A stretch of DNA of 59,951 bases, from the NCBI RefSeq assembly GCF_003334335.1, contig NZ_QOWQ01000031.1; one strand, given 5' to 3'. Position 1 is the first letter of the stretch. Each line of letters begins with the position of its first letter. The DNA comes from Escherichia coli. GTDB lineage: Bacteria > Pseudomonadota > Gammaproteobacteria > Enterobacterales > Enterobacteriaceae. Positions 11,647 through 55,450 of the stretch are shown here, piece after piece. The notes beneath the pieces are model-generated. The model ran no database searches. It was given only the letters and a program-made list of their open reading frames with translations, and was not told the origin of the DNA. The position numbers and the translations under genes were made by a program.

Positions 11647-11659
11647 GTGCACAATAAAA

Positions 11660-11687
11660 GGTCCGATGCCCATCGGACCTTTTTATT
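11660..11687. terminator. Bidirectional hairpin terminator between convergent rpoS and ygbN
   Basis: GGTCCGATG-CCC-ATCGGACC stem flanked by an A-run upstream and a T-run downstream. Confidence 0.6.
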
Positions 11688-45868: not shown

Positions 45869-47383
45869 ATGAGTTTTTCCGTTGATGTGCTGGCGAATAT
45901 CGCCATCGAATTGCAGCGTGGGATTGGTCACCAGGATCGTTTTCAGCGCCTGATCACCACGCTACGTCAGGTGCTGGAGTGCGATGCGTCTGCGTTGCTA
46001 CGTTACGATTCGCGGCAGTTTATTCCGCTTGCCATCGACGGTCTGGCAAAGGATGTACTCGGTAGACGCTTTGCGCTGGAAGGGCATCCACGGCTGGAAG
46101 CGATTGCCCGCGCCGGGGATGTGGTGCGCTTTCCCGCAGACAGCGAATTGCCCGATCCCTATGACGGTTTGATTCCTGGGCAGGAGAGTCTGAAGGTTCA
46201 CGCCTGCGTTGGTCTGCCATTGTTTGCCGGGCAAAACCTGATCGGCGCACTGACGCTCGACGGGATGCAGCCCGATCAGTTCGATGTTTTCAGCGACGAA
46301 GAGCTACGGCTGATTGCTGCGCTGGCGGCGGGAGCGTTAAGCAATGCGTTGCTGATTGAACAACTGGAAAGCCAGAATATGCTGCCAGGCGATGCCACGC
46401 CGTTTGAAGCGGTGAAACAGACGCAGATGATTGGCTTGTCCCCTGGCATGACGCAACTGAAAAAAGAGATTGAGATTGTGGCGGCGTCCGATCTCAACGT
46501 CCTGATCAGCGGTGAGACTGGAACCGGTAAGGAGCTGGTGGCGAAAGCGATTCATGAAGCCTCGCCACGGGCGGTGAATCCGCTGGTCTATCTCAACTGT
46601 GCTGCACTGCCGGAAAGTGTGGCGGAAAGTGAGTTGTTCGGGCATGTGAAAGGAGCGTTTACTGGCGCTATCAGTAATCGCAGCGGGAAGTTTGAAATGG
46701 CGGATAACGGCACGCTGTTTCTGGATGAGATCGGCGAGTTGTCGTTGGCATTGCAGGCCAAGCTGCTGAGGGTGTTGCAGTATGGCGATATTCAGCGCGT
46801 TGGCGATGACCGTTGTTTGCGGGTCGATGTGCGCGTGCTGGCGGCGACTAACCGCGATTTACGCGAAGAGGTGCTGGCAGGGCGATTCCGCGCCGATTTG
46901 TTTCATCGCCTGAGCGTGTTTCCACTTTCGGTGCCGCCGCTGCGTGAGCGGGGCGATGATGTCATTCTGCTGGCGGGGTATTTCTGCGAGCAGTGTCGTT
47001 TGCGGCAGGGGCTCTCCCGCGTGGTATTAAGTGCCGGAGCGCGAAATTTACTGCAACACTACAGTTTTCCGGGAAACGTGCGCGAACTGGAACATGCTAT
47101 TCATCGGGCGGTAGTTCTGGCGAGAGCCACCCGCAGCGGCGATGAAGTGATTCTTGAGGCGCAACATTTTGCTTTTCCTGAGGTGACGTTGCCGACGCCA
47201 GAAGTGGCGGCGGTGCCCGTTGTTAAGCAAAACCTGCGTGAAGCGACAGAAGCGTTCCAGCGTGAAACTATTCGTCAGGCACTGGCACAAAATCATCACA
47301 ACTGGGCTGCCTGCGCGCGGATGCTGGAAACCGACGTCGCCAACCTGCATCGGCTGGCGAAACGTCTGGGATTGAAGGATTAA
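45869..47383 (+). CDS. norR: Nitric-oxide-responsive sigma54-dependent activator NorR
   Basis: Start trimmed to [12 protein letters not shown] (504 aa); GAF domain, AAA+ GETGTGKE and GAFTGA motifs, C-terminal HTH. Confidence 0.9.
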
Positions 47384-48345
47384 ATAATCCCGGCCTGATA
47401 GAAATCCTGCAGGTTTATTGCGCCGGTGAGTTTGCCGTTTTCATCCACCACCGGTGCGGCAGTGATTTTGCGCTTCATCAGGATCTCTTTGGCGTCGATG
47501 GCGCGACTTTGCGATTGCAACGTGGTGCCGCCGACCGTCATCGCTTCATTGACTGGCGTGGTGAGTGCGCCGCCGCCAACCAGCCAGCGACGTAAATCGC
47601 CGTCGGTAAAGACGCCTTGTACCTGTTGTTGAGCGTCACATACCGCCACCAGCCCCAGACCGGTGCGGCTGAGTTCCAGCATCGCATCCATCACGCTGGC
47701 GGTTAACGCCACCTGTGGGATGGCATCGTCACGGCGCATCAGATGATGCACTTTATTCAGCAAGCGAGCGCCCAGTGCCCCGGCTGGGTGGGAGCGGGCA
47801 AAATCTTCTTCATTAAATCCGCGCGCCTGCATGACCGCCATCGCCAGCGCGTCACCCATCATCAGGGTATTGACGGTGCTGGAGGTCGGCGCAAGGTGCA
47901 TCGGGCAGGCTTCGCGTTCTACGGAGATATCCAGCACCGCTTTTGCCGCCAGGCCCAGCGGTGACGTCGGTTTGCCGGTCATCGCCAGCAGCGCGATAGA
48001 TTTATCTTCCAGACGCGGAATAATCAGATCCAGTTCCTTCGCGCCACCGGAGTAAGAGATAAACAGCATCACATCGCGGCTTTCGATCATCCCCAGATCG
48101 CCGTGCAGCGCTTCTGCCGGATGGACAAAAAAAGCCGGAGTGCCGGTACTGGCAAGCGTTGCGGCGATTTTCTTACCAATGTGGCCCGATTTGCCAATTC
48201 CCGAAACCACCACTTTGCCTTCACAGTGCAGGATGATATTGGCGGCGCGAACAAAATCATCGCCCAGACGTTCCGGTAAACGGCTTGCTTCCTGCAACTC
48301 CAGCATTAACGTCTGACGTCCCGCGTTCAGTAGTGCTTCACTCAT
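47380..48345 (-). CDS. gutQ: D-arabinose 5-phosphate isomerase (SIS + CBS domains)
   Basis: 321-aa ORF; last gene of the srl/gut operon. Confidence 0.88.
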
Positions 48346-49111
48346 TGCTCTCTCCGGTTATGATCACATCGATCCCTTTCTCTTCCAGCGCCTGACGAAA
48401 CGCCGGATCGATACCTGCGTCGGTAATCAGCTTATCGACGCTTTCAAGACTGCAAACTACGTTGGGGCTTTTACGGCCAAACTTTGATGAGTCCGCCATC
48501 AAAATCACTTCGCGCGCGGCATTGCACATTGCCTTACTGACGGTATAAACCTCGTTAAAGGTGGTTACGCCCGCATTGAGATCGATGCCGTCGGTGCCCA
48601 TAAACAATTTATCGAAGGTGAAATGCTCGAAGGCATTCTCTGCCAGTTGCCCGTGAAATGAGGCCGATTTTTTGCGAAACGTTCCGCCTGGCATCAGGAT
48701 AGTTTGTTCGTTATCCAGTTCGGATAGCGCATTGACGATATGCAGGCTGTTGGTCATCACCGTGATGTTATTAAAGCGCGAGAGCAGGGGAACCATCTGC
48801 AAAACGGTACTGCCAGCATCAAGAATGATCGAATCGCCATCATGGATAAAACTAACGGCAGCTTCTGCAATCAGCTCTTTCTTGTGGGTGTTGATGAGTG
48901 TTTTATGATCGATAGGCGGATCGGATTCCTCTTTATTCAACACCACTCCGCCATAAGTACGAATGACGGTTCCGGCATGTTCCAGAATGACCAGATCTTT
49001 GCGAATGGTTGTGCCTGTGGTGTCAAAGTATTGCGCCAATTCTTCAACCGAGCATTTACCCTGCTTTTGCAGATACTCCAGAATGGCGGCCTGACGCTGA
49101 CGAGGTTTCAT
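48338..49111 (-). CDS. srlR: Glucitol operon repressor (DeoR family)
   Basis: 257-aa ORF with N-terminal HTH. Confidence 0.88.
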
Positions 49112-49177
49112 GGGCGTGATTACCTGATTTAGGTTTCAAAATGATAACTTCGCAAGCAAGTAACATTCACAACGAAA

Positions 49178-49537
49178 TTATCCACGTTTCAGTTTAAGCG
49201 CCAATGATAGAGCATTCTGTGATAGTGGATCATGGGGAAAGATCACATCGGGCTGTAAATCACCCGCATGCATACCGGTAATTGCGGGAATTTTTTGCGG
49301 TCGGGCGAAGACGGTCAGTCCTTTCATAAACAAGGTGTCGACGATGCGCTGCTGATCGTCCAGCGCGATGGCGACCACGACCCGCGGTTTAAAGCGCCCG
49401 CTGGAACGGCCCACGCCAACCCGCCCTTGCTGGCATAGTGTGTCGAAGGCACGGTTAAAACGAGAAATTTGCCAGCCGCCTAAGGCCAGTTGCGCACACC
49501 AGGCGATAACGGCGACGGTGATGAGTGCGGATACCAT
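49178..49537 (-). CDS. gutM: Glucitol operon activator GutM
   Basis: 119-aa ORF with N-terminal hydrophobic segment. Confidence 0.82.
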   Translation of the reverse strand: MVSALITVAVIAWCAQLALGGWQISRFNRAFDTLCQQGRVGVGRSSGRFKPRVVVAIALDDQQRIVDTLFMKGLTVFARPQKIPAITGMHAGDLQPDVIFPHDPLSQNALSLALKLKRG

Positions 49538-49641
49538 AACTTTTCCTTAATGTAGTGGCGGAAGTCCTGTATGCCTGATGAGCGTAGCGCATCAGGCATT
49601 CTATAGTCTCACGGAGATCCTTAATGGATCTCCGCTGTTGA

Positions 49642-50796
<1,155 letters not shown>

Positions 50797-50806
50797 GTTT
50801 CAGCCT

Positions 50807-52344
<1,538 letters not shown>

Positions 52345-53811: not shown

Positions 53812-54309
53812 ATGACTGACAGTGAACTGATGCAGTTAAGTGAACAGGTTGGGCAGGCGCTGAAAGCCCGTGGCGCAACCGTAACAACTGCCGAGTCTTG
53901 TACCGGTGGTTGGGTAGCGAAAGTGATTACCGATATTGCCGGTAGCTCCGCCTGGTTTGAACGCGGATTTGTCACCTACAGTAACGAAGCCAAAGCGCAG
54001 ATGATCGGCGTACGCGAAGAGACGCTGGCGCAGCATGGCGCGGTGAGTGAACCCGTCGTGGTGGAAATGGCGATAGGCGCACTGAAAGCGGCTCGTGCTG
54101 ATTATGCCGTGTCTATTAGTGGTATCGCCGGGCCGGATGGCGGCAGTGAAGAGAAGCCTGTCGGCACCGTCTGGTTTGCTTTTGCCACTGCCCGCGGTGA
54201 AGGCATTACCCGGCGGGAATGCTTCAGCGGCGACCGTGATGCGGTGCGTCGTCAGGCTACTGCGTATGCATTGCAGACCTTGTGGCAACAATTTCTACAA
54301 AACACTTGA
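53812..54309 (+). CDS. pncC: NMN amidohydrolase (CinA C-terminal-domain protein)
   Basis: 165-aa ORF immediately upstream of recA. Confidence 0.85.
   Translation: MTDSELMQLSEQVGQALKARGATVTTAESCTGGWVAKVITDIAGSSAWFERGFVTYSNEAKAQMIGVREETLAQHGAVSEPVVVEMAIGALKAARADYAVSISGIAGPDGGSEEKPVGTVWFAFATARGEGITRRECFSGDRDAVRRQATAYALQTLWQQFLQNT

Positions 54310-55450
<1,141 letters not shown>

Follow-up and report, generated by a model that had tools for sequence, protein, structure and literature searches.

Two stem-loops without a U-tract between srlD and gutM of Escherichia coli K-12 and the 3' end of the srlAEBD transcript

REPs, or palindromic units, were defined by Ton-Hoang et al., 2012 as imperfect palindromes of 30-40 nt that carry one or more mismatches in the stem. 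The hallmark of these elements is the tetranucleotide GTAG/CTAC; the REP transposase needs both it and the stem mismatch in order to bind and cleave (Ton-Hoang et al., 2012). One REP locus, REP325, both causes partial Rho-dependent termination and stabilises the cistron that precedes it (Harris et al., 2026, preprint). At the ends of Rho-dependent transcripts, protective stem-loops shield the RNA from PNPase and RNase II and are closely followed by rut sites, and 24% of the stem-loops are annotated REPs (Dar and Sorek, 2018). The element that separates srlD from gutM in E. coli probably belongs to this long-known class of REP stabiliser and partial Rho-dependent attenuator; its RNA 3' end is already in a public table, and as a kind of element it is ordinary and understood and brings no new principle. 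We propose that the spacer encodes two stem-loops on the srl mRNA, neither followed by a U-tract, and that the second of them, a REP, determines where the abundant srlAEBD transcript ends in the steady state, a reading to which we give a probability of roughly 0.7.

The window analysed here is a stretch of 59,951 nt that corresponds to the reverse complement of MG1655 ~2.818-2.878 Mb; in a sequence comparison the region was 100% identical to E. coli K-12 strains. Coordinates are converted as MG1655 coordinate = 2878158 - window coordinate, which was verified on the MG1655 locus (L001). The srl/gut (sorbitol) operon lies on the minus strand of the window, according to the ORF list and the MG1655 annotation, and the features needed here are given in the order of the mRNA.

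51763-52326, minus strand: srlA
50807-51766, minus strand: srlE
50425-50796, minus strand: srlB
49642-50421, minus strand: srlD (ORF list, MG1655 annotation)
49642-49644, minus strand: srlD stop codon UGA (ORF list, sequence, MG1655 annotation)
49611-49635, minus strand: locus-specific hairpin GCGGAGAUCC-AUUAA-GGAUCUCCGU (sequence, fold energy)
49569-49599, minus strand: single REP (palindromic unit, z1-like) AUGCCUGAUGCGCUACGCUCAUCAGGCAUAC (mRNA-strand sequence, match to a z1 query)
49544-49548, minus strand: gutM Shine-Dalgarno sequence AAGGA (sequence and alignment)
49178-49537, minus strand: gutM (ORF list, MG1655 annotation)
48338-49111, minus strand: srlR
47380-48345, minus strand: gutQ

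The srlD-gutM spacer of 104 nt (49538-49641) reads, on the mRNA strand, as the srlD UGA (49644-49642), 6 nt, the hairpin (49635-49611), 11 nt, the REP (49599-49569), 31 nt and the gutM AUG. The srlD stop lies 6 nt 5' of the first paired base of the hairpin, and the gutM Shine-Dalgarno sequence, which is AGGAG in most other Escherichia alleles, sits within the 31 nt between the REP and the gutM AUG.

An earlier note on this DNA had described, on the plus strand, a palindrome TGCCTGATGAGCGTAGCGCATCAGGCA at 49572-49598 and a hairpin CGGAGATCC-TTAAT-GGATCTCCG at 49612-49634, and both were found at those positions with that sequence. The former gains one pair per side to give a perfect 10-bp stem (49571-49599). 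The latter, whose 9-bp stem begins at the 8th nt past the srlD stop, just as the note had it, gains a G.U pair on the mRNA (minus) strand and then spans 49611-49635. The hairpin has nine Watson-Crick pairs and a closing G.U pair in K-12, the closing pair being G-C in most alleles; it holds two GATC sites, and it folds at -17.7 kcal/mol in K-12 and at -20.8 kcal/mol in the majority allele. The REP, 31 nt overall, folds into a 10-bp stem, a C.U mismatch, two further pairs and a UAC loop. Taken as a whole, the 121-nt spacer RNA has a fold energy of -44.4 kcal/mol, a value that lies at z = -4.9 relative to dinucleotide shuffles. A count of perfect hairpins with stems of 9 bp or more gave 19 entries at 12 loci in the window, as opposed to 1.6 +/- 1.1 in dinucleotide shuffles, an excess of about 10-fold, and two of them lie within 40 nt at srlD-gutM; both palindromes at this junction are not chance.

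Other palindromes in the window deserve mention in their own right. At 54309-54330 (MG1655 ~2823849), ~60-80 bp upstream of recA, lies the perfect palindrome ATACTGTATGAGCATACAGTAT, which is presumably the recA SOS (LexA) box, as it has the position and sequence that we would expect of that site. At 11656-11683 a perfect 12-bp stem stands between A4 and T4 (AAAAGGTCCGATGCCCATCGGACCTTTT) and resembles a bidirectional intrinsic terminator.

That neither srlD-gutM palindrome carries a U-tract had also been stated in the earlier note, and it is borne out by the tails that follow the two stems, GUGAGACUAU and ACAGGACUUC. Given the missing U-tract, a terminator scan that returned 0 sites over 49100-50000 and a published intrinsic score of 1.51, below 3.0, an intrinsic terminator is ruled out. 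Several other identities were considered and rejected. The sole Rfam match, to the NiCo-AnGGAG riboswitch at 49604-49680 on the minus strand, takes in the end of the srlD coding sequence together with the hairpin and, at 27.3 bits against a gathering threshold of 64.5 (E = 0.011), is a chance match. An operator for GutM or SrlR is not indicated, since the window holds no second copy of the hairpin with up to three mismatches, the srlA promoter region included, and since the hairpin sequence is missing from other genera that retain both regulators. An RNase III site is unsupported because the stems are just 10 bp and the YmdB/RNase III paper gives whole-operon changes only, and a link of the UhpU sRNA to srlD is irrelevant here, the reported change being ~1.1-fold.

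The label REP-like, used for the first palindrome in the earlier note, was too weak for the element, which is a genuine REP by descent. It matches a z1-type query at 27 of 29 positions, and we take z1 to be its subtype, by a consensus that matched real copies exactly. With 31 nt and a mismatch in the stem it has the size and shape of a REP, and it is extragenic, lying between the srlD stop and the gutM start. A 32-nt query with the canonical allele was found at at least 27 places per genome in every one of the E. coli genomes searched (5426/5426), with a median of at least 40, and copies 100% identical to the canonical allele occur at unrelated places in the genome: strain E2865, for instance, has one at 3485234 and its srl spacer at 3688181. 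Since the canonical form is multi-copy and has identical copies elsewhere, the palindrome at 49569-49599 is, as judged from its sequence, a single REP by descent. In supplementary Table 10 of Harris et al., 2026, gutM is marked 'REP-adjacent: Yes', a mark that draws on a curated set of 697 MG1655 palindromic units; the MG1655 record itself has zero repeat features anywhere over 50 kb and is therefore silent on REP status.

The K-12 copy has not kept the conserved tetranucleotide. On the plus strand it reads GTAT for GTAG (49568-49571), and on the mRNA strand its foot reads ...GGCATAC, that is, ATAC for the canonical CTAC. On the mRNA strand, two substitutions separate it from the canonical form. 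T->C replaces a G.U pair by G-C, and C->A converts the U.C mismatch into a U-A pair, upon which the adjoining A-U pair can form. Jointly they take the fold energy from -13.2 kcal/mol in the canonical allele to -18.2 kcal/mol in K-12 and the foot from CTAC to ATAC. Among 18 Escherichia alleles sampled, 13 keep the CTAC foot ...CAGGCCTAC, 10 of these with the full canonical tail TTATCAGGCCTAC / CTTATCAGGCCTAC, whereas the foot change is present in five; the GU-to-GC change is found in eight. By analogy with other GTAG mutants (Ton-Hoang et al., 2012), the foot change probably makes the K-12 copy a poor substrate for the REP transposase.

Published RNA maps place the end of most srl operon transcripts at this REP, and the relevant features are as follows.

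49568 (MG1655 2828590), minus strand: mapped steady-state RNA 3' end (Adams et al., 2021 Term-seq; coordinate verified on L001)
49501-49580, minus strand: C-rich, G-poor stretch (sliding-window composition: C 31%, G 19%, C/G 1.67)
48812 (MG1655 2829346), minus strand: Rho termination peak inside srlR (Adams et al., 2021, supplementary file 2; Rho score 3.7)

In the Term-seq data of Adams et al., 2021 (eLife), obtained from MG1655 in LB at OD 0.4 (supplementary files 1 and 3), a 3' end is recorded at MG1655 2828590 (+) with an average count of 4666 and the flanks ...CATCAGGCATAC[A]GGACTTCCGC. It falls 3 nt past the end of the REP stem, with 31 nt left to the gutM AUG. Within 2828500-2828599 it is the sole entry, and the foot of the upstream hairpin accordingly has no listed end (Adams et al., 2021). 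DirectRNA-seq counts from the same study, taken in 800-nt flanking windows, were 585 upstream and 197 downstream of the end without bicyclomycin (BCM) and 309 upstream and 199 downstream with it, so that coverage drops 3-fold without the inhibitor and read-through past the REP site is 34% without and 64% with bicyclomycin. The site was flagged as a significant Rho termination region with a Rho score of 1.91 (Adams et al., 2021), a score whose 800-nt windows take in the stronger Rho site inside srlR (score 3.7). At that internal peak, counts fell from 697 to 76 without BCM and from 386 to 156 with BCM (Adams et al., 2021), and it is a likely place for polymerases to stop further downstream, from which transcripts would be trimmed back. 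The C/G ratio of 1.67 in the 80 nt after the REP is a local maximum, in a short stretch that overlaps the gutM RBS and first codons; by analogy with the rut placement of Dar and Sorek, 2018, this stretch may tentatively be put forward as a candidate Rho loading region.

RNA density along the operon was taken from the DESeq2 baseMean values of Harris et al., 2026, each a mean over every sample of a single study, after normalisation by gene length on our part. It is 9.0 for srlA, 10.3 for srlE, 9.6 for srlB and 19.0 for srlD, and 1.6 for gutM, 3.2 for srlR and 2.6 for gutQ. Across the spacer, from srlD to gutM, the density is therefore ~12-fold lower. The ~2-fold excess of srlD over srlA, srlE and srlB could have other causes, such as an internal promoter, and an RpoN SELEX peak has been reported between srlB and srlD. 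An srlAEBD-sized transcript has been seen by Maes et al., 2017, who also found gutM down 3-fold in a pcnB mutant, with srlR less affected; Northern-blot evidence counts in favour of the explanation proposed here. The earlier note had suggested that the palindromes act as a partial terminator or RNA-stability element and had named a fall in RNA-seq coverage and 3'-end mapping as checks. For the REP the suggestion is supported: RNA-seq is ~12-fold lower from srlD to gutM and 3-fold lower between the 800-nt windows, the Term-seq end lies 3 nt past the REP stem, and Rho inhibition partly relieves the drop. This is the reverse of the even coverage without 3' ends at the junction that the note had named as its refutation. 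A further Term-seq 3' end, internal to srlA, is found in the published data at window position 52100 on the minus strand (MG1655 2826058); together with the strong Rho region in srlR, it indicates that srl/gut transcription is attenuated at several points.

A rival proposal is that the spacer mainly harbours a weak constitutive promoter for gutM-srlR-gutQ, with palindromes that overlap this promoter or modulate it at the DNA level and a 3' end that is incidental. A genomic-SELEX peak of the sigma-70 holoenzyme has been placed in the srlD>gutM spacer without details of the hexamers, the filtering rule of Adams et al., 2021 implies a transcription start in the 200 bp before the 3' end, and the spacer contains one weak match to a promoter.

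49598-49624, minus strand: weak sigma-70-like TTAAGG-15-TAGAAT, candidate weak gutM promoter (custom scan, 8/12, short spacer)

This match overlaps the hairpin loop, the 3' arm of the hairpin and the start of the REP. However, nothing in the spacer passes a standard promoter threshold, the best match reaches just 8/12 with a 15-nt spacer and would begin transcription inside the REP, and the spacer sequence is not conserved beyond Escherichia, though gutM is. Moreover, the RNA density of gutM is the lowest in the operon, and coverage upstream of the 3' end far exceeds that downstream, which means that most RNA at the site comes from srlD. We regard this proposal as quite improbable as the main account of the spacer, while a weak internal gutM promoter may coexist with the attenuator.

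Based on these observations, we propose the following model for the srlD-gutM junction. Most transcription from the srlA promoter would yield no stable gutM-srlR-gutQ RNA. Polymerases that pass the spacer would in part be terminated by Rho, either just past the REP or, more strongly, within srlR. Exonucleases would then shorten the untranslated or cleaved tails in the 3' to 5' direction until the REP hairpin stops PNPase and RNase II at its foot. The outcome would be a protected srlAEBD mRNA and a minority read-through transcript, with the regulators expressed at a low level relative to the transporter and dehydrogenase. The upstream hairpin would most likely form a second barrier to exonucleases, and terminating ribosomes would transiently melt it, as it starts 7 nt past the stop. 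The REP behaves as an exonuclease-blocking stem-loop would, with the 3' end just past its stem and a density of 19.0 for srlD against 1.6 for gutM. The 3' end and the coverage drop are correlated with the palindromes; a causal role of the REP in setting the end, the origin of that end by trimming and any role of the upstream hairpin are steps that we infer. The finding that terminal REPs are not generally tied to longer mRNA half-lives (Harris et al., 2026) counts against the model.

The closeness of the upstream hairpin to the stop codon could be read differently, in terms of translation. By analogy with REPs, for which a distance of up to about 15 nt from the stop codon is taken as the limit, the hairpin might hinder terminating ribosomes and so lead to mRNA cleavage, trans-translation and less SrlD; such an effect of REPs was reportedly found by Liang, Rudd and Deutscher, 2015, and is attested through a secondary citation. 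The 5' arm of the hairpin is within the footprint of a terminating ribosome, the hairpin starts 7 nt past the UGA, inside the ~15-nt limit, and in 97% of the 67 spacers compared below the first hairpin likewise starts no more than 15 nt from the stop, with a median of 6 nt. The REP itself, which starts 43 nt past the srlD stop, lies outside that limit. Against such an effect, srlD has the highest RNA level in the operon and gives no hint of destabilisation, and closeness to the stop may simply mirror compact spacers. On balance, an effect on translation seems to us very improbable beside the end-defining role proposed for the REP.

In contrast to the multi-copy REP, the upstream hairpin is peculiar to this locus, being single-copy in 5409 of 5426 E. 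coli genomes and confined to Escherichia among the 67 Enterobacteriaceae spacers. Over 18 Escherichia alleles (alignment A2) its loop varies freely between AUUAA, GUUAA, UUUAA and UUAAA, and its stem has four variable positions. Read on the mRNA strand, three of the changes give a G.U wobble, where the opposite strand would have an A.C mismatch; the fourth, in strain HS, disrupts a pair, and the HS hairpin has a fold energy of -12.3 kcal/mol. Compensatory double changes were not seen in the 18 alleles, and since shuffle controls equalled the observed values as well, covariation is uninformative within Escherichia. The chance that all three transitions are wobble-compatible is ~1 in 8, and such changes lean towards a constraint at the RNA level, short of proof. 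Changes that favour pairing on the mRNA strand are thus found in both elements, three G.U-compatible ones in the hairpin and two stem-strengthening ones in the K-12 REP.

To place the junction in a wider context, we compared srlD-gutM spacers from 67 loci that encode GutM relatives. Outside Escherichia neither of the E. coli palindromes is present, yet each spacer has some strong, mostly unrelated palindrome, and a hairpin of -9 kcal/mol or stronger occurs in 67 of 67 spacers. The median distance from the srlD stop to the first hairpin is 6 nt (within 15 nt in 97%), and that from the last hairpin to the gutM AUG is 15 nt. Of the 65 spacers scored, two long REP arrays having been left out, 88% have a z below -2 (median -4.05) in spite of their unrelated sequences. 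Among the palindromes of other genera are genus-specific REP types, which occur singly, in pairs or in arrays; the spacers of Enterobacter and Lelliottia contain CCCTCTCCC...GGGAGAGGG palindromes, and those of Trabulsiella, Kosakonia and others have short GC hairpins, some of them followed by T-rich runs. Tandem REP/BIME arrays at the junction reach 612 nt in Kosakonia cowanii (L058) and 550 nt in Phytobacter ursingii (L071), which, set against the single REP of E. coli, is extreme copy-number variation at one orthologous site. The gutM-srlR spacer of the same loci, taken as a control, is conserved in sequence and weakly structured, with a median z of -1.6 and 26% below -2.

This pattern is consistent with selection for 'a hairpin here' and also allows for a permissive landing site for mobile palindromes. 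The latter would make both elements selfish or neutral passengers, the REP a mobile element in a permissive gap, the hairpin a lineage accident and the effects on RNA ends an unselected by-product. The type and number of REPs at the junction do vary by genus, from one REP to arrays of 550-612 nt, as is typical of repeat turnover, REP positions differ among strains, their effects are context-dependent, and there is no covariation within Escherichia; as REPs are mobile, their recurrence may mean tolerance of insertion and not selection. What speaks against passengers is that all 67 spacers carry a strong hairpin, including non-REP hairpins in genera with spacers of 41-46 nt, that the neighbouring gutM-srlR spacer of the same loci rarely gains such elements, and that the changes in the K-12 lineage strengthen the stem while abolishing the tetranucleotide that the transposase recognises. 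We consider a purely neutral origin unlikely.

The alternative, that the junction might be a selected 'hairpin slot' that is always filled by unrelated stem-loops, whether REP types, arrays, boxC-like palindromes or unique hairpins, and that the REP of K-12/O157 might have been domesticated in it, is a tentative idea that we hold to be possible and still doubtful. The K-12/O157 REP seems domesticated in that it has lost the GTAG recognised by the transposase and has gained, through two substitutions, a stem ~5 kcal/mol stronger. If the idea were true, the locus would show cleanly, in nature, how mobile repeats can be recruited and later fixed as dividers of expression within an operon that contains its own regulators. 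The mildly new part of the present work is this cross-genus pattern of always a hairpin, together with an apparently immobilised but stronger K-12 REP allele.

The gutM-srlR spacer showed features of its own. At 49112-49177 on the minus strand, it is 66 nt long and highly conserved in sequence over 66 Enterobacteriaceae loci (L007-L073). In most genera it contains an inverted repeat, TTGCGAAAT-TATC-ATTTCGCAA, of which the E. coli version, TTGCGAAGTTATCATTTTGAAA, is degenerate, and a promoter-like TTGGCG-16-GATAAT is found at 49204..49177 on the minus strand. The conserved repeat, the promoter-like match and the srlR/gutQ RNA at ~2x gutM point to an operator or promoter of srlR. In three Citrobacter loci (L019, L021, L029) this spacer is 137-206 nt long, as against the usual ~68 nt, and the added sequence (...GCAGCTTGAAGTATGACGGGTA) is one that we take to resemble ERIC/IRU elements.

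The proposed role of the REP at the end of srlAEBD would explain how one promoter gives a high level of sorbitol transporter and dehydrogenase and a low level of the activator GutM and the repressor SrlR. This balance between the structural and the regulatory genes lies at the heart of the unusual gut regulatory circuit. The locus is also a handy natural test case for the dual model of REPs as stabiliser plus partial Rho terminator, because it has a single unit, an adjoining non-REP hairpin, alleles that differ in stem strength and counterparts in other genera with unrelated hairpins.

Among known systems, intrinsic terminators share with srlD-gutM a GC-containing hairpin right after a stop codon. 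They differ in that the srlD-gutM stems have no U-tract and fall below the terminator threshold (1.51 < 3.0), although in a few other genera (e.g. L046, L050) the junction hairpin is followed by a T-rich run and is more terminator-like. BIMEs, the REP pairs that bind IHF or gyrase, are built of the same palindromic units. In E. coli the junction has one unit, with no inverted partner and no linker motif, and there is therefore no basis for BIME-specific functions at the DNA level in this species; in several other genera REP pairs or arrays do occupy the site.

Closer are the protective 3' stem-loops of Rho-dependent transcripts (Dar and Sorek, 2018; Peters et al.). The srlD-gutM structure is likewise stable and lacks a U-rich tail, with a precise 3' end directly downstream, a stretch in which C exceeds G and a Rho region further on, in srlR. 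Unlike those ends, the element is internal to its operon, and a fraction of polymerases must read through for gutM, srlR and gutQ to be expressed. Closest are the malE-malF REP (Newbury, Smith and Higgins, 1987) and REP325 in yjdMN (Harris et al., 2026), in which, as here, a REP without a U-tract lies between co-directional cistrons, the upstream cistron is far more abundant, the 3' end is at the REP foot and read-through appears partly Rho-sensitive. REP325 comprises 12 units, whereas srlD-gutM has a single palindromic unit. The srlD-gutM junction also differs from both in that a unique non-REP hairpin precedes the REP, in that the foot of the K-12 REP is mutated and its stem more perfect, and in that the genes downstream are the operon's own activator and repressor.
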